This document shows, piece after piece, positions 4,284-52,559 of a stretch of 52,616 nt of DNA. Under the pieces are notes generated by a model, which worked only from the letters and a program-made list of their open reading frames with translations, searched no databases and was not told the origin of the DNA. Positions within the stretch are counted from its first letter, which is position 1. Each line of letters starts with the position of its first letter. Position numbers and translations under genes: made by a program. Source of the DNA: a phage. The DNA lies in the sequence record PZ379594.1; one strand, given 5' to 3'.

Positions 4284-4311
4284 TCTAACATTAGTTGGAT
4301 GTGAGAGAGAC
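4284..4311 (+). promoter_or_regulatory. conserved promoter-like motif, copy 1 (CTAACATTAGTTGGATGTGAGAGAGA)
   Basis: One of five copies of a ~25-bp motif, all in intergenic DNA upstream of + strand genes; about 70 nt upstream of the 4380 ORF. Confidence 0.5.
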
Positions 4312-8050: not shown

Positions 8051-8078
8051 TGAAACATTAGTAGAATTTGATTCTGAC
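8051..8078 (+). promoter_or_regulatory. conserved promoter-like motif, copy 2 (divergent: CTGAAACATTAGTAGAATTTGATTCTGA)
   Basis: Shares the 5' half AATTCTGAAACATTAGT with copy 3. Confidence 0.4.
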
Positions 8079-8190: not shown

Positions 8191-8219
8191 CTGAAACATT
8201 AGTTGGAATTGAAGAGACA
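8191..8219 (+). promoter_or_regulatory. conserved promoter-like motif, copy 3 (CTGAAACATTAGTTGGAATTGAAGAGACA)
   Basis: Intergenic; close match to the consensus. Confidence 0.5.
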
Positions 8220-18140: not shown

Positions 18141-18412
18141 TGCAAACTGTATATTCTATTTTTGATATGCAGGAATCAGAGCACCATATGTTTGCTACCG
18201 ATTCCGAAGTTCCCGCAAAGGACGCTGTAATGGCGTTCCTTGAAAAGATTAAGGACAAAGTATTCTATTCGTCCGACACACAGTCTCAAGCAGTTAACGA
18301 TGAGACATTTAAAAACCTCCGAACTTTAATCTCGGCGACTACTTCAATTGAAGAGCTGTCCGAAGCATTAGTTGGATATGACTTCCGTCTTGCAATGTTG
18401 CAAGTCGATTAA
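18140..18412 (+). CDS. small acidic protein (90 aa)
   Basis: ATG overlaps the polymerase stop (TAATG). Confidence 0.5.
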   Translation: MQTVYSIFDMQESEHHMFATDSEVPAKDAVMAFLEKIKDKVFYSSDTQSQAVNDETFKNLRTLISATTSIEELSEALVGYDFRLAMLQVD

Positions 18413-22280: not shown

Positions 22281-22802
22281 ATGTCCTGTATGACCCAAGT
22301 TGTTGCAGTTAAACGAGTGCATCCTAATGCGAAATTACCTGTGTACGCTACTGCTGGCGCTGCTGCTGCTGACGTTTGCACTATCTCCGATAGCACTGTT
22401 GTTATCAATCCCGGCTGCTCTGCTGTTTTCGATACTGGCCTCCAATTCGAGATTCCAGTTGGATACGAACTCAAAGTACATAGCCGTTCTGGTCATGGCT
22501 TTAAGTCTGGCATTCGCCTGGCAAACTGCACAGGAATTCTGGACTCCGATTATCGTGGCAATCTTATGGTTAAGTTGCACAACGACTCGGACACAGCCTT
22601 TGTGGTTCAGCCAGGTGAACGTATTTGTCAAGTGCAAGTTAGTAAAGCTACTCAACACCATTTCGTCGAAGTTGACCGCTTGAATGCAACTGGTCGTGGT
22701 GAAGGTGGGTTTGGCTCAACTGGTCGTGTGGAACTCGGTCAACACGAAAGACCACATATTCCAGAAGGCTTGACAGTCCACAATCACAGTATTGCCAAGT
22801 AA
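22281..22802 (+). CDS. dut: dUTP diphosphatase (trimeric dUTPase)
   Basis: dUTPase motifs (RSGHG, GILDSDYRGNL, QPGERICQ). Confidence 0.8.
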   Translation: MSCMTQVVAVKRVHPNAKLPVYATAGAAAADVCTISDSTVVINPGCSAVFDTGLQFEIPVGYELKVHSRSGHGFKSGIRLANCTGILDSDYRGNLMVKLHNDSDTAFVVQPGERICQVQVSKATQHHFVEVDRLNATGRGEGGFGSTGRVELGQHERPHIPEGLTVHNHSIAK

Positions 22803-33997: not shown

Positions 33998-34170
33998 CTG
34001 CAAAGTTCCCGGAAATAAAATACTTCTTGCACCGTCCTGTAATAGAGGACAGTTCACTCTGTTCTCTTAAAGAGTTACAAGATGGGACCTACTCTATTAT
34101 GGATTTGTTGACCTTCCACGCAATACTCGATTTGCGTAACGAATTAAAACCTAAAGAAGAAGACAATGGC
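33539..34170 (+). CDS. tail assembly chaperone, predicted -1 frameshift long form (G-T-like, ~210 aa)
   Basis: Canonical G/GT (P2 E/E') arrangement: the -1 frame opens at the slippery heptamer and ends at the tape-measure start. Confidence 0.55.
33895..33901 (+). other. candidate -1 programmed frameshift site T_TTT_TTC
   Basis: Heptamer in the chaperone zero frame (GAT TTT TTC); the -1 frame has a stop at 33892-33894 and is then open for 92 codons to 34170, 4 nt past the tape-measure ATG. Confidence 0.6.
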
Positions 34171-37100
34171 TAATAACATAAAAGATTTGATGAGAATGTC
34201 CGAAGCCGAATTGATTGGCTTAGGCGCTCAATATGGTCTGTCGTTCAATCCAGGTATGCGCAAACGAGATATGGCACAGCAACTTGAATCAAGTGCTGCA
34301 TCTGGTTGGATGGAAACAAATTCGCAGCTTATGGAAGAAACTCATACAGAAGATGATGGCATCTCTTATGGCACTTCCGACATGATTTCAGACTCAGCCC
34401 ACATTGCACAGATGATTTCTGGCGCTGGGCTGACTGAAACATTCCATGCTGCAATGAACGGTCCAAGTCACCATGTAGAAGCTATTCATGCCTACATGGA
34501 GAAATTAGGTGTATCCGCCGATGATGTGTGGATGCACATGCCCAAAGCAAACCCGAACAAACCGGAAGGTCATTGGGGAATGCTTAATGCGTACATGCGT
34601 GATACGCTGACAGGCCATCAAGATATAATGCCAGAGCTTCCTGGACATTATTCAGGCGACATTATGGGCGAGTATTCCACAAACCGTGGAGATATTGCCA
34701 AGTCGTTCGGCTATCTTGCCCACATGTATGTTGACCGTGAACAGTACGACAACCCAGACCGCTATGCACGAGATGTTTATCGTGTAGCCAAACGTTTAGA
34801 ATCAGAATTGCCGCAAAACTTCCGAGAAGTTGCTGCGGTATCTGCAATGAATGTAGGAAATAAGTCGGGGCCAAAACTTTCATACATGGATTCATTGCCT
34901 AAACTTGGCTCTGAGTCAATTGTTAGTGGTATCCAACACCCTAGACAGCCACTTAACGCATCTGGTTTACCACTTGGCTCATTTGGCAGCGGTATTAATG
35001 CCGAATACTCATTATCTGCATCCTTATCTGGCTCGCCAGGCTGGTCTGATGTAAGTAGGACTCTGTACCAAGATGTTTCTAGCGTAGTTAAGTCTGCGGC
35101 AAAGGTCTATTCTGGTGATTCTGAAAGAGGAATGAACGCGTACCGCACTCAATCTTCTGACAGAGATTTGATTCTTGATTCTGCTTCCCGGTATACAGAC
35201 CTTGCTGATGCTCGTTCTGGTTATGACAACTTGAAGAAAGATATTGGCGATGACCCACGTTATTCTGGTGCATCAATTCGCGGTGTACTTGAAAATGCTC
35301 ACCAATATAATGAGGCCGAAGTTACCAAAACATTCGACCCTGCTGAACGTTTAAGAAATACTGGACCTACTGAACTTGGTACATCCAGTGAGTTTACGGC
35401 AAATCTGAATGAACCGACAAGTTGGAACTCTGCAAGGGATAGAAGAGAAGCTATTGCTATTGCAAATCTCGATAGTGCTGGTGCTGGACAGCCTAGTTCG
35501 GTTAAATACCACAATGCGCTCGAACAAGGTACGCAGGAGTGGCTTGATTTTCGTAAGCAGTACGATATTACTGGCTCTACTATTGGTGATTATCTGGGCC
35601 ACAACCCCGCAACCAATAATAGCCCAATACATACAATGGGCGAGAAGATTGGCCTCACAGTAAGAAAGGATTCTCCACGAGCACGTGAGAACTTTGAGCG
35701 TGGTCATAGGCTGGAAGCATGGGCCAGGCCAAGAGTTGGTGAGAAGTACGGGGTTGAGATAACCGAAACTGGCGCAATCACTAACGATAATTACCCTGGT
35801 ATGATGTACTCGCCAGATGGATTAATTGGTGATGACGCTCTGTGGGAACATAAGGCTCCAAACAACTTTAAAGATTTGGAATCAACTCCTAACTACATGG
35901 ACCAGATGCAACTTGGTATGCTTCTGAGTGGTCGTAGTCGCACCCTGTTTACTCAAACTGTTGGCGAAGAATCTCGTAGCCAGTGGGTTGATGCTGACCC
36001 AACGTGGTTCGAACGTAACAAGAATAAGATTGCATCTTCACAAGCACGCATGAAAGCTGGTCGTGAGTTTATGGAAAGCTCTGACCTTGAGGGCAAAGAC
36101 CTTATTAATGCAACTCGTGAAGTTATGTCTGGTGGTGGCATCTGGGGATACCAGACTCGTGACCACAGGGAAGGTGAAGGATACACGGCTGGTAAGCGTG
36201 GAATGGCAAGGTACAGTGCTGCTGCTGGCACTGATGATGACCCGTTCTTAAGAAACCGCACCGATGCTGGAATTGGTGCTTCTACAGCATCTGCTGTTGG
36301 TGCTGATAGCACAACTGGCAATGACCTGATGGCAGTATCTGTCAAGAAAGGTATTCTCGCTGCACAGGAAGAAAACAAGCTGCGTGGACAAGATGCCGAC
36401 TTTGGTGGAAATGATGGTCGTGGTGGCGGAGGTGGCTTCTGGGATACATTTGATGCCAGCAGTTATGGTATCAGCGGAGGTGGTTCTGGTGGCGGCGGTC
36501 GTGGTGGTTGGAGAGTTGGCGGTAGCTTCTCAGATGACTTCGGTCGTGCTGGTGGAGCATTGGCTGCTGGCGTAGCTGGTGGCAGCATTGGTTCATTATC
36601 CAATGGCGCAATGAATGCCCTCATGATGACTCCTTGGGGTCGTGTAGCTGGCATGGCTATTGGTGCTGCCCAGATTGGAAACGAAGCTCTGGAAGGTCTG
36701 AACGACTTCTACGGCAATTCTTTAGATGCTGGTGTTAATAATCCTAACGAATATTCTTCCATGACTCAGGGCATGGAAATGTTGGGACTTAACTCACAAC
36801 AAGCCAATCGACTCAATCAAACCACACATAGTGCCTATAACACCCTCCTAAATGGCGACCCCAGCGGCGCTGTGAACATCGTTCAGGGAACCCGTGGTCT
36901 TATCACAATTGGCGACATTCGTGCGGCACAGGGCGACCCTGTGGCCCTAGCGCGGATAATGCGTGAGCGTGGTCAGGAACGGGGTTGGAGCCAGGCCCGT
37001 ATTGCTGGTGCAATGCAAATGGCTGGTCTGGACGGTATGGCTCGTGCCTATGACCGCACAGAATACAGCATGAGCGAGGCTGAGGCGAACGTTAAGCGCG

Positions 37101-37855
37101 GAGCCGACTCAAACTATGCCGAAGGCGTTGCACAGCTAGGAATCGCGCAGACGGAGCGTGCTGGCGTACTGCCTGGATACGCTGTTCCGCAAGCTGCAAT
37201 TTCATACGGCAGCACCTTTATTGAGGCAGGCGGCGATGCCGCTAGAACGATGCGTGTGGCCTCCAACGGTACAGCCGATGCAGCACGTAATGTTTATGAC
37301 TTTATCGCAGGAGAAGAGTCAGGGAACCGCGATTTTAACGCAGATGGTTCGGTAGTTACATCGCCAACTGGTGCTAAAGGTCGTATGCAAGTTCTTGATT
37401 CAACTTCTCGTGACCCTGGCTTTGGTGTTCGTCCTGCCAAAGATAACTCACTTGAAGAACGTGCCCGTGTTGGTCGTGACTATTACGATGCAATGCTTAA
37501 GCGATATAATGGTGACGCTGAGAAGGCTATGGCGGCGTACACAGATGGTGCCGGAACTGTTGATGATGCTATCAACAAACATGGGACCGACTGGCTGAAC
37601 GCTGTTCCACTACAGGCACAGAACCGTGTCAAGAAGTACCGCGAATGGGCTTCTCAGGGAGATTCTATTGCAGAAGGTGCAACTGGATTCACCAGAAACG
37701 GACTGTCCTATGGTCAGACACAGCCCACCATAGTTAACGTTGAAGTCAAAGCTACCGTGAACAACAAACAAGCGTCTGCAACCGTGTCAACTCCGAACGG
37801 TCAAACTGTTACCCAAACAATCAACATGGGTAATGGTGCAATGGAACGCAGATAA
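34166..37855 (+). CDS. tail tape measure protein with C-terminal lytic transglycosylase-like domain
   Basis: 1229-aa ORF after the chaperone; Gly-rich segments; SLT-like block EESGNRDFNADGSVVTSPTGAKGRMQV...AYTDGAG. Confidence 0.75.
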   Translation: MANNIKDLMRMSEAELIGLGAQYGLSFNPGMRKRDMAQQLESSAASGWMETNSQLMEETHTEDDGISYGTSDMISDSAHIAQMISGAGLTETFHAAMNGPSHHVEAIHAYMEKLGVSADDVWMHMPKANPNKPEGHWGMLNAYMRDTLTGHQDIMPELPGHYSGDIMGEYSTNRGDIAKSFGYLAHMYVDREQYDNPDRYARDVYRVAKRLESELPQNFREVAAVSAMNVGNKSGPKLSYMDSLPKLGSESIVSGIQHPRQPLNASGLPLGSFGSGINAEYSLSASLSGSPGWSDVSRTLYQDVSSVVKSAAKVYSGDSERGMNAYRTQSSDRDLILDSASRYTDLADARSGYDNLKKDIGDDPRYSGASIRGVLENAHQYNEAEVTKTFDPAERLRNTGPTELGTSSEFTANLNEPTSWNSARDRREAIAIANLDSAGAGQPSSVKYHNALEQGTQEWLDFRKQYDITGSTIGDYLGHNPATNNSPIHTMGEKIGLTVRKDSPRARENFERGHRLEAWARPRVGEKYGVEITETGAITNDNYPGMMYSPDGLIGDDALWEHKAPNNFKDLESTPNYMDQMQLGMLLSGRSRTLFTQTVGEESRSQWVDADPTWFERNKNKIASSQARMKAGREFMESSDLEGKDLINATREVMSGGGIWGYQTRDHREGEGYTAGKRGMARYSAAAGTDDDPFLRNRTDAGIGASTASAVGADSTTGNDLMAVSVKKGILAAQEENKLRGQDADFGGNDGRGGGGGFWDTFDASSYGISGGGSGGGGRGGWRVGGSFSDDFGRAGGALAAGVAGGSIGSLSNGAMNALMMTPWGRVAGMAIGAAQIGNEALEGLNDFYGNSLDAGVNNPNEYSSMTQGMEMLGLNSQQANRLNQTTHSAYNTLLNGDPSGAVNIVQGTRGLITIGDIRAAQGDPVALARIMRERGQERGWSQARIAGAMQMAGLDGMARAYDRTEYSMSEAEANVKRGADSNYAEGVAQLGIAQTERAGVLPGYAVPQAAISYGSTFIEAGGDAARTMRVASNGTADAARNVYDFIAGEESGNRDFNADGSVVTSPTGAKGRMQVLDSTSRDPGFGVRPAKDNSLEERARVGRDYYDAMLKRYNGDAEKAMAAYTDGAGTVDDAINKHGTDWLNAVPLQAQNRVKKYREWASQGDSIAEGATGFTRNGLSYGQTQPTIVNVEVKATVNNKQASATVSTPNGQTVTQTINMGNGAMERR

Positions 37856-47153: not shown

Positions 47154-47664
47154 GTATGAAGGGTTTGTTGAGAATACGAACCTGACTGAAAGCCAACAAG
47201 TGCTCAGGGACGAGCACAAGATTCTATTCGGATGCGATAAGAATGGAACATGTTGGTATAAAATTCGTGAGTCTTTAAAGGACGGTACCGCCAAAGTTGT
47301 ATACGAAAATGATGGGACTATTCGACACATCGACTTTGGTCCTGGTGATACTGTGGCTACACCGCTGGGTGGAAACATAGTTGAGCTGGAGTCGCTGCCA
47401 GAGGGTGTTGAAGAAAACAGACACTTTTGGAAGTTTGATGGTGAGAAGTTTGTCGAGCATAAAGAAAACCGTGTGAAATATAACGAGTTTATGCGTAAGA
47501 AGAAACTTGCACCATTGACGGAAGAAATTAGCATTCTCACTGACATGGTTGAGCTTGGTATGGCCAAGAAGTCTGACAACGAACTGCTTATTAAACTTAA
47601 GAAGAAGCGTATCAAACTGCATCAACTCGACCTAACCGAAACAATCGACTGGAATGAATTCTAA
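47122..47664 (+). CDS. tail fibre assembly protein (Tfa-like)
   Basis: ~180 aa directly after a fibre gene; C-terminal K-rich helical region similar to Tfa chaperones; start uncertain (47122 or 47134). Confidence 0.5.
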   Translation: MEHGMTATLCKYEGFVENTNLTESQQVLRDEHKILFGCDKNGTCWYKIRESLKDGTAKVVYENDGTIRHIDFGPGDTVATPLGGNIVELESLPEGVEENRHFWKFDGEKFVEHKENRVKYNEFMRKKKLAPLTEEISILTDMVELGMAKKSDNELLIKLKKKRIKLHQLDLTETIDWNEF

Positions 47665-48005
47665 TGGATAGACAAACTTTCCAGATGATTTGGGAAGCAA
47701 TGCACCAATACGGCGTTTGGCATGGACTGTTGGCTGGACTGACAGCCTTAATCCGTGGTGCGTATGAGAGTGAGGGTTTAAGCAAAGCGTTGCTGGATGC
47801 GACGCTATGTAGCTTAATCGGGCTGTTTGCATTTCAGGTCGCAGGTACATTTGAAACTTTCACAACTAACGTCACTATGCAGTTGGTGTTAGCCATTGTG
47901 ATTGGTGTCATTGGTGCCAACCTCATTATCACAACTGTCAGGGAAAGTTTCTCTGGCGCAATCAAACAACTTAATCCTTTGACGTGGTTCAAGAAGGCAC
48001 GATGA
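47664..48005 (+). CDS. holin (lambda S-like)
   Basis: IRGAYESEGLSKALLDATLCSLIGLF resembles lambda S [27 protein letters not shown] as recalled; possible dual start M1/M8. Confidence 0.6.
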   Translation: MDRQTFQMIWEAMHQYGVWHGLLAGLTALIRGAYESEGLSKALLDATLCSLIGLFAFQVAGTFETFTTNVTMQLVLAIVIGVIGANLIITTVRESFSGAIKQLNPLTWFKKAR

Positions 48006-48022: not shown

Positions 48023-48577
48023 ATGTTATCATTCAAAGTCCTTGCACTTCTGACAGCTTTAGTTCACATCAACGCCCCAGCTTCGGTTGGGGCAGTGAAT
48101 TCTGCTATTACAGATTTTGCAAGTCACTCTTATTTAAATGGAAGTCTGAAACTATCTTCTTCACAACGCAAAGAGCTAGAATGCTATACTAAAGTTATAT
48201 GGTATGAAGCTCGCGGAGAAGACAAACATGGAAAGATTCTGGTAGCTAATGTCGTCCGTAATAGAACTAAGTTCGGGAAGCCATTCGCTAACACCGTTTG
48301 TGATGTTGTCTATCAACGCAATCAATTTGCATGGACACGAGAAGCAAAGAAGAAGAATGCTCAATGGAAGCATGTAGCAAAGATTAATTATGCCACAGAA
48401 CAACAACAAGTTCTGGACACCATTAATGTTGCAATCTCTTTTGTACTGTTTAATCAACCCTCTGTCACCAAAGCAACCCACTTTTGTACAGCATCGGAGA
48501 AGTGCAACTTCAAGAATGTTAAAGGTTTGGGACGTTATGGTGGCCATAAATTCTATGAGTATCTAGGAAATCTGTAA
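48023..48577 (+). CDS. endolysin, SleB/CwlJ-type cell-wall hydrolase with N-terminal signal sequence
   Basis: Hydrolase_2-type block VIWYEARGE...LVANVVRNR...[12 protein letters not shown]; hydrophobic N-terminus; AAGGAA RBS; adjacent to the holin. Confidence 0.65.
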
Positions 48578-49677
48578 TGGCTTACACTACCTTTTCACAA
48601 ACCAAGAATAACCAACTACTAGAACCAATGTTCTTTGGTCAGAACGTTAACGTTGCTCGATATGACCAACAGAAGTACAGCATCTTCGAGAAGTTAATTG
48701 AGAAGCAGTTATCTTTCTTTTGGCGACCTGAGGAGGTTGATGTTAGCCAGGACCGAATTGATTATGCTGGTCTTCCTGAATGCGAGAAGCACATTTTTAC
48801 CAGCAATTTACGGTACCAAATCCTGCTTGATTCCATTCAGGGACGTGGACCAACTGCAGTTTTGCTACCAATTGTGAGCATTCCTGAGCTTGAAACTTGG
48901 ATTGAAACTTGGTCATTCTCAGAGACAATTCACTCTCGTTCTTACACGCATATTATCCGTAACATTGTTACAAACCCAAGCGTAATTTTCGATGAAATTG
49001 TGGAGAATGAGCACATTAAAATGCGTGCAATTGGCATCTCCCAATATTATGACGAGCTTCAACATCTGACTTCCATGTGGCATTTGCATGAAGATAAAGT
49101 TTCTCTTCGTGAGCTTAAGAAGAAGCTGTATTTATGCCTCATGTCCATCAATGCACTGGAAGCAATTCGCTTTTATGTCAGCTTTGCTTGCTCATTTGCC
49201 TTCGCTGAACGCAAGTTAATGGAGGGAAATGCCAAGATTATTCGCTTAATTGCTCGTGATGAAGCACTCCATTTGACCGGAACTCAACACATGCTGAACC
49301 TTCTTGCAAGCGGTGTTGATGACCCAGAAATGGCCGAAATTGCTAAAGAATGTCGTCAAGAATGCCAAGAAATGTTCGAAAATGTGGCCCAACAAGAGAA
49401 AGATTGGGCTGATTATTTGTTCAAAGATGGCTCAATGATTGGCTTAAACAAGCAAATTCTGTGCGGATATGTGGAATATATCACGAATATTCGTATGCAA
49501 GCAGTTGGATTAGATGCTCCATTCAAAGGTGCTACTAACCCGATTCCTTGGATTAACGCATGGTTGAATTCGGATGCTGTACAAGTTGCTCCACAAGAAA
49601 CGGAGATTAGTTCGTACCTTGTTGGGCAGATTGACTCCGAAGTTGACACCAATGCTCTAGGCGGATTTGAACTATGA
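48577..49677 (+). CDS. nrdB: ribonucleotide reductase class Ia small subunit
   Basis: Long blocks (LLDSIQGR...[32 protein letters not shown]; [18 protein letters not shown]; C-terminal [14 protein letters not shown]) match my recollection of enterobacterial NrdB; no nrdA in the window. Confidence 0.8.
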
Positions 49678-49784
49678 TTGGATACGGTGAAGGCTGACGT
49701 TTGTCAGTTATATGCGAGAAGAGATTCGATGCGTTAGCGTCGTTTCTCTTTGAGCTAGAATAAAAACAAGTAAATTAAATATTT

Positions 49785-50020
49785 ATTTATTCCCAATATT
49801 GCTACAATATTAAGAGTAATATTAGGAATGCGTAAAGTTAAAACCAAATGGTACATGGTCGGTCAGCTGTATCTCGCCGAAATTTGTTCGAACAGTTGTC
49901 TGACTATGAAATAAATTTTTTTTTTTATAATTTTTTATTTTCAATATTGCTACAGAATTAATGAGACTCGAATTGTTACGATATTAACGAGACTAGAATT
50001 GTGGCAATATTATAATTTTT
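49785..50020. repeat. second array of CAATATTGCTACA-type motifs plus an AT-rich tract, upstream of the RNA polymerase gene
   Basis: CCCAATATTGCTACAATATTAAGAGTAATATTAGG, TTTTCAATATTGCTACAGAATTAATGAGACTCGAATTGTTACGATATTAACGAGACTAGAATTGTGGCAATATTATAAT and a T/A run at 49911-49945; same family as the 100-790 array. Confidence 0.55.
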
Positions 50021-50276: not shown

Positions 50277-52217
50277 ATGACTACTATCACCACTCAAACT
50301 ATCAAATCTGTTGTTCCTGCCATCACTGCTCTGGTATACCGTGCCAAAGAGAAGCAGAACTATATGCAGCCTCAGACTTGTGCTATTGCTGCCTTAGCCA
50401 TATTCAAGATGATGACGTCTTTCACTCGTGATGACGTTGTTCCTGCCATTGCGATGGTTGAGCTGGCTTCTGCTTCTATTGCTGATGCCAACCGCTACAA
50501 CAACGACTTGAAAGCAATGCACTATGTTGACCCAGCTATCAACCTCATTGGTCTGGCTAAGCACTTCGGCTTCATCACCATGAACGAAGACAAGTCATTC
50601 CAGCAAACTGACACATGGGTTGAACTGGTTACAACCAAAGACACAGCAGTGCCATTCACTGAGCGTGTTACATCTGAATCTCGTCGCAAGCCTTTCGTTA
50701 AAGGTGGCAAAGTTAAGCCATCCAAAACTCTGAAAGCTGCAATCGAATTCCTGCAAGATACTGAGTACCATGTGGAGACTGAGATGGTTCGCATCATTCA
50801 GTCCATGCTTGAGCAACGTACTTATGGTGGCTTGCAGATGCCAGAAGCAATCCAGACTGAACTCCATGTTTGGAACAATGCTGTAGCAATGATGAATCAG
50901 GACACACTGTATTCTGACTACTTTGCTGACAACCGTGGTCGCCTGTATCATGTAGCATGTGCTGGTCCTAACCCACAATCCTCTGACTTTGCTCGTTGCT
51001 TGTATTCTCACAATGTTGAGAACATCGTTAAGAAGTTTAACGAAGATGGTTCTACTACCATTGCATACAACATGTTCATGGCAGAGCTGGAAGATATTTC
51101 CGGTGGTGAATGGTGCAGTGCTAAGCGTTTGACCTATGTTGCTCAGAATCCGGCTGGTTCACTTGCTCGCATGATGAACATGCCTAAAGCTGAACGTCCC
51201 TCTAAGCCATTCACTTATGTTCGTCTGGCTCTGGATTGGTTCAAGTTTGAGACTACAGGTGAATGCGATTCCCGTGTAGGATTTGGCTTAGATGCTAAAT
51301 GCTCTGGTACTCAATATCTGGCATTCATTGCTGGTAACATGGAAATGGCTCGTGCAACAGGTCTGGTTGATTCTGAGACTAAAGCATCTGACCCATACCA
51401 GTTGAGTCTTCGTGAACTGTTGAAGCTGCTGGACAAGTCTTCAATGAAACCATCTCCTGAAATCATGGATGAATTCTTGAATCCGAAAGCTGGTCGTAAG
51501 TTTATCAAAACTCCATACATGGCTATCCAATATGGTGGTGGTAAAGCTGCTTTAACTGGTTCATCTGACTTCATTGGCTACATGACAGAAGCTCTCCAGA
51601 TTCCTATGGAGAAAGCTGAGGCATTTGCTGAACTGTGTGTAGAAGCAATCCATAACGCATTGGGTGCTAAGATTAACATGTTCATTGAGAAAGCTGCTGA
51701 TGCTGCATACAACCGTTGTGTTGAACTTGGTAAAGAGTACATCACATACCGTCACACTGATGGTCAGGTTGTAATGAAGCCTTGCTTCCCATCTCGTGAA
51801 ATCTGTGATGCATTCAGCATTCGTGTTGACTCTCAAACTCGTGTTATCTTTGGTCAGATTCAGGAAGAGAAACCTTGGACCATTCGTGAATCCAATCCAA
51901 CTAAAGAGGAATTCAAGCGTACTTTCGTAGTCAACTATATTCAAGGTATTGACGCATTGGTTGCTCGTACTGTTGCTGTTAAAGCTAAAGAAGCTGGTCT
52001 TCGTGGTTTCACTTCAATCCATGATTGTTTCCGTTGCTGTCTGGCTGATGCTCCACGTATGATGGAAGTTATTCGTGCAGCATATGTTGAAATCTTCGTA
52101 ACCAACAATCAATTCGAGAATCTGTCTAAGCAACTCGGTGGCATTCAGATGTATCATGAGAACATCGTAACCGAAGAGCTTCTGATGAGCGAACACGCTT
52201 ACTACTTCTGTCAATAA
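50277..52217 (+). CDS. single-subunit (T7-like) DNA-dependent RNA polymerase, short form (646 aa)
   Basis: Catalytic motifs DAKCSGTQYLAF (T7 DGSCSGIQHFSAM), KTPYMAIQYGGG (motif B-like) and TSIHDCFRCCLADA (T7 LIHDSFGTIPADA). Confidence 0.8.
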   Translation: MTTITTQTIKSVVPAITALVYRAKEKQNYMQPQTCAIAALAIFKMMTSFTRDDVVPAIAMVELASASIADANRYNNDLKAMHYVDPAINLIGLAKHFGFITMNEDKSFQQTDTWVELVTTKDTAVPFTERVTSESRRKPFVKGGKVKPSKTLKAAIEFLQDTEYHVETEMVRIIQSMLEQRTYGGLQMPEAIQTELHVWNNAVAMMNQDTLYSDYFADNRGRLYHVACAGPNPQSSDFARCLYSHNVENIVKKFNEDGSTTIAYNMFMAELEDISGGEWCSAKRLTYVAQNPAGSLARMMNMPKAERPSKPFTYVRLALDWFKFETTGECDSRVGFGLDAKCSGTQYLAFIAGNMEMARATGLVDSETKASDPYQLSLRELLKLLDKSSMKPSPEIMDEFLNPKAGRKFIKTPYMAIQYGGGKAALTGSSDFIGYMTEALQIPMEKAEAFAELCVEAIHNALGAKINMFIEKAADAAYNRCVELGKEYITYRHTDGQVVMKPCFPSREICDAFSIRVDSQTRVIFGQIQEEKPWTIRESNPTKEEFKRTFVVNYIQGIDALVARTVAVKAKEAGLRGFTSIHDCFRCCLADAPRMMEVIRAAYVEIFVTNNQFENLSKQLGGIQMYHENIVTEELLMSEHAYYFCQ

Positions 52218-52530: not shown

Positions 52531-52559
52531 TGTAACATTAGTTGGATGTGAAGTAACAG
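52531..52559 (+). promoter_or_regulatory. conserved promoter-like motif, copy 5 (GTAACATTAGTTGGATGTGAAGTAACAG)
   Basis: Lies after the terminator at the window end, consistent with the control region continuing across the window junction. Confidence 0.45.

Follow-up and report, generated by a model that had tools for sequence, protein, structure and literature searches.

The phage sequence PZ379594.1 (52,616 nucleotides, one strand, 5' to 3'; called the window here, by which we mean the whole stretch of DNA that was analyzed) carries a gene for a ribonucleotide reductase (RNR), nrdB, right behind its lysis genes. The gene encodes the small subunit of a class Ia enzyme, and the large subunit, NrdA, is not encoded with it. 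We think it likely that the phage protein works together with the NrdA of its host, Escherichia coli. The parts of the gene that matter for this reading are the following (residues in E. coli numbering).

48577..49677, + strand: nrdB, class Ia RNR small (beta, R2) subunit, 366 amino acids (aa), ATG to TGA
48715..49272, + strand: span of the conserved cofactor and radical residues W48, E52, D84, E115, H118, Y122, E204, D237, E238, and H241
49087..49098, + strand: codons for H-E-D-K at a 10-residue deletion, a short turn that replaces a beta-hairpin (residues ~173-182)
49570..49674, + strand: beta-tail (S341-L375), with E350, Y356, and the alpha-docking C-terminus

The nrdB product matches the E. 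coli NrdB structures in the PDB from end to end (residues 1-366 against 1-376, E = 1e-199 with phmmer). It also matches the Pfam family PF00268 (Ribonuc_red_sm) with 167 bits against a cutoff of 33.6, and NF006576, the NCBIfam equivalog of class Ia beta subunits, with 699.7 bits, twice the curated cutoff of 346. It is therefore a class Ia beta subunit by a whole-protein match above the curated family cutoffs. As the E. coli reference, we used the K-12 nrdAB-yfaE locus from NC_000913.3. Phage and K-12 NrdB share 299 of the 366 aligned residues (81.7%), the nucleotide identity of the two genes is 69%, and the proteins differ by a single indel, the loss of 10 residues (E. coli 173-182) from the phage protein. 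The first-pass annotation of this DNA, made from the sequence alone, had recognized an NrdB of the enterobacterial type, including the C-terminal tail, and had suspected a short internal deletion relative to the host protein; the degree of identity, the intact alpha-binding tail, and the missing 10 residues agree with this. It had also named an identity no higher than that of typical phage RNR genes as a result that would speak against it. T4-type proteins reach about 51%, far below the 81.7% of the window protein. Among the 5000 best-scoring records, 4881 were less than 60% identical to the window NrdB.

The closest relatives of the window are phages of the genus Carltongylesvirus (Chaseviridae, Cleopatravirinae; the phiEcoM-GJ1 group), with genomes of 51.5-55.6 kb. 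As the window end (52616) and the window start (1) are contiguous in phage flopper, the window is a complete, circularly permuted genome. When E. coli NrdA and YfaE were used as tblastn queries against the window, only noise was obtained (best E = 0.6, over 17 aa). Pfam detected no RNR alpha domain of any class in the large open reading frames (ORFs) of the window, and all ORFs of at least 500 aa have other Pfam assignments (primase/helicase, DNA polymerase A, terminase, virion protein, and RNA polymerase). The full annotation of phage flopper contains no RNR alpha subunit either. That no large-subunit gene lies in the window had already been noticed in the first-pass annotation, and since the window is the whole genome, nrdA is missing from the genome and not just from one stretch of it. 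This leaves nrdB as the sole RNR gene, and the genome does not have a self-sufficient nrdA plus nrdB operon of the T4 or Privateervirus type. Transfer RNA (tRNA) genes, searched for with ARAGORN, and other known RNAs, searched for with Rfam, were not detected in the whole window; the phiEcoM-GJ1 paper is said to describe an intron-containing tRNA gene.

The conservation of the protein points to what its partner may be. The window protein and three related phage proteins all have the six diiron ligands of E. coli NrdB (D84, E115, H118, E204, E238, and H241). The radical-bearing Y122, the radical transfer residues W48, D237, and Y356, and E52, E350, and I297 are all identical to those of E. coli. 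As beta residues in contact with alpha, we used those listed in the supplementary information (SI) tables for the E. coli alpha2beta2 structure at 2.6 A (PMC11551348). Of the direct contacts, 29/32 are identical to E. coli (N131T, N343A, and D368N are changed), as are 13/14 of the water-bridged contacts (R57Q is changed). Within a set of 15 phage sequences, only one of these 46 positions varies. The C-terminal tail is identical to that of E. coli from Y356 to T367, and L370, F373, and L375 are kept, while D368N, D369A, S371G, N372G, and Q374E are changed; at position 369, where the phage has Ala, 93% of bacterial sequences keep Asp. Judged by its sequence, the protein has the alpha-docking tail of a class Ia beta subunit, and binding is predicted.

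The gene is under strong purifying selection. For 15 clade sequences (105 pairs with a synonymous divergence, dS, above 0.1), the median ratio of nonsynonymous to synonymous divergence (dN/dS) was 0.063, with a range of 0.005-0.09, and dS reached 0.77. In the beta-tail of these 15 sequences, 20 of the 35 codons vary only synonymously and 2 alter the residue. The beta-tail of a class Ia enzyme is known only for docking into alpha and for carrying Y356. Given these roles, the almost purely synonymous variation of the tail indicates that selection acts on alpha binding, and this in a genome that has no alpha subunit.

All 46 Carltongylesvirus records carry this NrdB, counted at an identity of at least 80%, with an intact ORF. 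We defined the genus set as the 46 records with an RNA polymerase at least 90% identical to that of the window, and the records with NrdB and those with the RNA polymerase agree in number and in organism names. The clade sequences were mostly GenBank phage records, and IMG/VR gave two further members. At the same locus, nrdB is not present in four sister genera of the subfamily (Faunusvirus, Loessnervirus, Sabourvirus, and Myducvirus), where the holin and endolysin genes are followed directly by the RNA polymerase region. The DNA homology of the sister genera to the window ends at ~48519 and restarts at ~49785-50010, in a region of AT-rich repeats. This break, together with the gene order of the sister genera, indicates that nrdB and its terminator entered the ancestor of Carltongylesvirus as a clean insertion of ~1.2 kb.

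Some database entries deserve a remark. PP952070.1, 'Staphylococcus phage Pel53', labelled as a Staphylococcus hyicus phage, is a Carltongylesvirus that is ~89% identical to the window across the region and has the same order of holin, endolysin, nrdB, and RNA polymerase genes; its host label looks doubtful. The IMG/VR contig IMGVR_UViG_2671180433_000014, filed as viral, encodes an NrdB that is 99.7% identical to that of E. coli K-12, and this contig probably comes from the host chromosome or from the flank of a prophage. An NrdB-like NCBI protein of 494 aa contains internal repeats with VSYTHLDVYKRQ, which we take to be a translated Nextera adaptor; this would make the protein an assembly artefact and not a variant.

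The insertion is not recent. Between the phage gene and E. coli nrdB, dS is saturated. The two genes differ in the GC content at third codon positions (GC3; phage 0.40, E. coli 0.63), and their third-codon identity stays within 20-47% along the whole gene, measured in windows of 30 codons, so that there is no recently exchanged segment. Recent capture from the host, or gene conversion with it, was considered and is rejected by the sliding-window third-codon identity, the saturated dS, the GC3, and the tree position. The phage protein is about as distant from E. coli NrdB as is Vibrio NrdB (81.7% and 79.8% identity, respectively). In a neighbor-joining tree, which is a simple distance tree and may suffer from long-branch effects, the phage clade (100% bootstrap) falls outside the cellular Enterobacterales (94%) and groups weakly (68-72% bootstrap) with NrdBs of other phages. 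Among these is Cronobacter phage 009, which has nrdA directly upstream of its nrdB. The Carltongylesvirus gene may have originated from a cell or from such an nrdAB operon of another phage, the latter as a matter of history and not of lost function. The first-pass annotation had called the gene host-like and had seen it as an acquired accessory gene located after the lysis genes and outside the replication module. The likeness holds in that the identity is far above that of typical phage NrdBs, but the gene was not recently taken from E. coli, as the saturated dS, the third-codon identity, and the place of the clade outside the cellular Enterobacterales show. Acquisition is supported by the nrdB-less locus in the four sister genera, and the location is as described, with nrdB following holin and endolysin. 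The neighboring genes, the putative signals around them, and other features mentioned below are as follows.

47664..48005, + strand: holin (Phage_holin_3_1, Pfam)
48023..48577, + strand: endolysin (Hydrolase_2, Pfam), upstream neighbor of nrdB
48565..48571, + strand: Shine-Dalgarno-like AGGAAAT of nrdB, a motif listed as Shine-Dalgarno in the ST32 paper
49727..49752, + strand: terminator-like GC hairpin with a T-run, 50 nucleotides 3' of the nrdB stop
49779..50012, + strand: AT-rich repeats with CAATATTGCTAC; a second set lies at 132-570, on the other side of the RNA polymerase gene
50277..52217, + strand: T7-like single-subunit RNA polymerase, first early gene and downstream neighbor of nrdB
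757-774, 4287-4304, 8054-8071, 8195-8212, 10178-10195, 18364-18381, and 52534-52551, + strand: seven copies of the 18-nucleotide motif AACATTAGTTGGATGTGA
13722-14372 and 22281-22802: ThyX-type flavin-dependent thymidylate synthase and dUTPase, other nucleotide-metabolism genes
34166-37855, + strand: virion protein of 1229 aa with both a YqaJ-like viral recombinase/exonuclease domain (residues 458-590) and an SLT lytic transglycosylase domain (residues 1064-1140), which are rarely combined in a tail or ejection protein

The ATG of nrdB overlaps the TAA stop of the endolysin gene (TAATG), a junction that is annotated in the same way in relatives, and nrdB is therefore tightly coupled to the lysis cassette. 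The replication module is remote from it, at ~13.7-22.8 kb. The GC hairpin behind nrdB is likely the end of a long rightward transcription unit. Exact copies of CAATATTGCTAC are found at 49794, 49942, 139, and 322, and parts of the AT-rich repeats are conserved in the sister genera; the repeats are probably an early promoter or regulatory region, with promoters for the host polymerase or operators. The copies of AACATTAGTTGGATGTGA, counted with up to 3 mismatches (0.07 are expected by chance), are confined to the + strand and to the early/middle region, and probably act as promoters for the phage-encoded RNA polymerase. No copy lies between 18.4 kb and nrdB, the nearest one upstream being 30 kb away, at 18364. 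Directly upstream of nrdB, sigma-70-like promoter matches are no more common than in shuffled sequence. Both the coupling to the lysis cassette and the lack of an upstream promoter-like site above chance suggest that nrdB, as the last gene of the rightward unit, would be expressed at middle or late rather than early times. For phage Mangalitsa (MN045229.1), PhageTerm predicts a direct terminal repeat of 3,234 bp that starts in the spacer between nrdB and the RNA polymerase gene and includes the latter gene. The start of this repeat aligns to window position ~50065. Therefore, nrdB would be the last unique gene, at the right genome end. This prediction disagrees with the abstract of the original GJ1 paper, in which the genome is reportedly terminally redundant and circularly permuted.

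Taken with the conservation and selection described above, the absence of a phage alpha subunit leads us to the reading that we consider the probable one, namely that the phage beta2 forms a functional hybrid enzyme with the alpha2 of host NrdA. Because there is no alpha subunit in the complete genome, host NrdA is the only candidate partner. The first-pass annotation had supposed that the product would have to pair with it, and this is now the best-supported reading, on evidence from sequence conservation and selection. The phage NrdB would assemble its own diferric-tyrosyl radical cofactor in the infected cell and would dock, via its conserved C-terminal tail, into NrdA. The resulting hybrid holoenzyme would be catalytically active and would sustain or raise the synthesis of deoxynucleoside triphosphates (dNTPs) for phage DNA replication, to the benefit of the phage. 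In such a division of labor, the phage would give only the small, radical-bearing subunit, and the large subunit, which is both catalytic and allosteric, would come from the host. The genome also encodes ThyX and a dUTPase, so the phage already invests in its dNTP supply. The tyrosyl radical of the E. coli enzyme is substoichiometric and needs maintenance. The host nrdAB locus carries yfaE, annotated as a cofactor maintenance protein (NC_000913.3), and radical maintenance may be the reason why it is beta alone that the phage supplies. Our searches of the literature turned up no experimental study of a phage NrdB that occurs without NrdA.

Several observations weigh against a hybrid enzyme, or at least against one that is always needed. 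E. coli is infected by Sabourvirus 4HA13 as well, but this phage lacks nrdB at the locus and has no close homologue elsewhere, and therefore the benefit would be conditional and not essential. The substitutions N131T, N343A, and D368N, together with the change of D369 to Ala, could reduce the affinity for E. coli NrdA. Furthermore, a DNA-precursor enzyme would not usually be encoded at the far right end of the map, in coupling with the endolysin gene.

The most obvious difference from the bacterial proteins is the internal deletion. In the window it removes the only beta-hairpin of the protein. The 366-aa allele (-10 residues) is found in the window, flopper, and BSBP01, a 369-aa allele (-7 residues) in FXie-2024a, and a 372-aa allele (-4 residues) in GJ1, the PYps phages, several TH phages, and MLP1. 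Each of the 115 bacterial homologues examined has the full length (376-383 aa), and the loss of the hairpin is seen only in the phage lineage. The window protein thus does not have the architecture of a gammaproteobacterial NrdB (hairpin at E. coli ~173-184, 376-378 aa). In AlphaFold2 (AF2) models, strands at 174-178 and 181-185 separate the two long helices of a bacterial homologue, and the phage protein has a helix-turn-helix instead of the hairpin, with a local confidence score (pLDDT) of 82-87. The mean pLDDT was 56 for the phage protein and 64 for the bacterial NrdB, low values because the alignment was shallow and uniform, and we used the models only for the locally confident hairpin region. 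None of the hairpin residues occurs in the alpha-contact tables (PMC11551348 SI), and this stretch differs widely in length among more distantly related class Ia NrdBs. Both findings suggest that the hairpin is dispensable for work with alpha, and constraint on it seems to be relaxed in the phage.

In a refinement of the hybrid-enzyme reading, loss of the hairpin may have to do with regulation. The hairpin-less phage beta2 would then be active with host NrdA but would be poorly trapped in the inactive alpha4beta4 ring that is induced by dATP, or would escape host control of beta in another way, so that dNTP synthesis would go on despite feedback inhibition. The interface of the ring is small (~525 A2), single substitutions on the alpha side abolish the ring, and I297 of beta inserts into a pocket of the cone domain (PMC11447812). 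Two substitutions fixed in the phage clade, D302Q and Q306G, are close to I297 and N300; Q306 is conserved in 100% of the 115 bacterial sequences, and neither phage residue occurs there. The progressive erosion of the hairpin in the phage lineage alone would also fit. However, S295, M296, I297, and N300 themselves are unchanged, and we found no literature source that places the hairpin at either interface. Zimanyi 2016 gives no list of the beta residues of the alpha4beta4 interface, of which only I297 was recovered (PMC11447812). Moreover, the 19 substitutions specific to the phage lineage are not enriched at alpha contacts (2/19, with 2.4 expected; P = 0.72) or within one residue of them (5/19, with 5.2 expected; P = 0.63). 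We therefore regard an escape from regulation as unlikely. If it were true, a single gene of 1.1 kb would yield feedback-insensitive dNTP synthesis, which T4 obtains with a complete enzyme of its own.

Some of the lineage-specific substitutions are clustered in residues 68-94 of NrdB (window ~48778-48861): H68C/N, I74T, K78R, T81I, V93A/T, and A94V. These positions are almost invariant in bacteria and away from the listed alpha contacts, and one possibility is that they belong to the beta-beta dimer interface. The cluster could mean that a protein-protein surface has changed, which would fit a phage beta that acts mainly outside alpha catalysis, for example in heterodimers with host NrdB or in another redox- or iron-related role. 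Such a role is very unlikely in our opinion, as it leaves unexplained why the alpha-docking tail, Y356, and E350 are nearly invariant at a dS of up to 0.77.

The conserved tail could also serve a decoy, a phage NrdB that occupies host NrdA in a dominant-negative manner and thereby shuts down or redirects host dNTP synthesis. There is a precedent in an inactive mutant of the vaccinia small subunit F4, which still binds the large subunit R1 and is dominant negative (PMC2900304). For this purpose the tail alone would do, yet the iron ligands, Y122, and the radical transfer residues are strictly kept, and dN/dS is ~0.06 over the whole protein. A lytic phage that replicates ~52 kb of DNA would also gain nothing by blocking dNTP synthesis, which makes a decoy highly improbable.

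The presence of nrdA next to the similar nrdB of Cronobacter phage 009, and the weak grouping of the clade with such phage NrdBs, would fit a decaying remnant of a former phage nrdAB operon. A remnant of this kind, or a recent and functionless passenger of host DNA, is hardly credible: the dN/dS values effectively refute it, and the intact ORFs, the ameliorated composition, and the low third-position identity also speak against it. Equally hard to credit is a hidden, highly divergent catalytic subunit encoded by the phage as the real partner, since there are many small early ORFs with no known function but RNR catalytic subunits have at least 550 aa, a size at which every ORF is assigned elsewhere, and in the tail and at the contact positions the phage protein has residues suited to E. 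coli NrdA.

A lone nrdB in this group of phages is not new. The last ORF of both ST32 and phiEcoM-GJ1 was described as encoding an RNR beta subunit (PMC6266442). In a list by Dwivedi et al. 2013, phiEcoM-GJ1 is one of two class Ia phages that have nrdB alone, and the authors stated that it is unknown whether such incomplete sets function (PMC3653736). Both the gene and its lone status are thus on record, and as annotations of the gene in this group go back to phiEcoM-GJ1, finding it in a genome scan adds little. What the present analysis adds is the boundaries of the insertion, the presence of the gene throughout the genus, evidence on how old the acquisition is, on how strong purifying selection is and where it acts, and the series of hairpin erosion. 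The gene of the window is the same as phiEcoM-GJ1 gp75, ST32 ORF79, and the other Carltongylesvirus nrdB genes, with the same place as last ORF after the endolysin gene and a protein identity of 90-99.5%. It differs from that of GJ1 in being the 366-aa (-10) and not the 372-aa (-4) allele, and in nothing essential.

With E. coli class Ia NrdB (PDB 1RIB and 7AI8; beta in 6W4X/9DB2), the phage protein shares the diiron ligands, Y122, and the radical transfer pathway. Unlike it, the phage protein has no beta-hairpin, is encoded without nrdA or yfaE, and has long diverged. The phage betas, with 4, 7, or 10 hairpin residues missing and ~19 lineage substitutions, would be natural E. coli-compatible variants for RNR enzymology with the best-studied alpha. 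Among virulent phages of enterobacteria, the class Ia NrdBs of Cronobacter phage vB_CsaP_009 (Privateervirus) and of Pantoea phage Survivor are 76-79% identical to the window protein and form its weak sister group. Cronobacter phage 009, Survivor, and T4, whose type of NrdB is only ~51% identical, have a complete nrdAB, unlike the window phage. The T4 RNR subunits are not known to cross-react with those of E. coli. Within the same family, Shewanella phage Spp001 (Chaseviridae, Nefertitivirinae) has a complete nrdA-nrdB pair by its replication genes, next to a DNA ligase gene; its beta subunit is only 32% identical, and this therefore was an independent acquisition.

The closest functional analogue is found in viruses of eukaryotes. 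In most chordopoxviruses, R2 is the only RNR subunit encoded, and vaccinia F4 and cellular R1 form functional hybrids on which efficient replication depends (PMC2900304). Like these viruses, the phage carries a small subunit only, with the catalytic residues and the large-subunit-binding C-terminus retained. Poxvirus R2 is of the eukaryotic type and was acquired independently, and a hybrid complex, shown for vaccinia F4, would here form with host NrdA. If so, the radical-bearing subunit alone would suffice to improve the supply of DNA precursors for a virus, and the lone NrdB of Carltongylesvirus would be the bacterial-virus counterpart of the R2-only strategy of the poxviruses.

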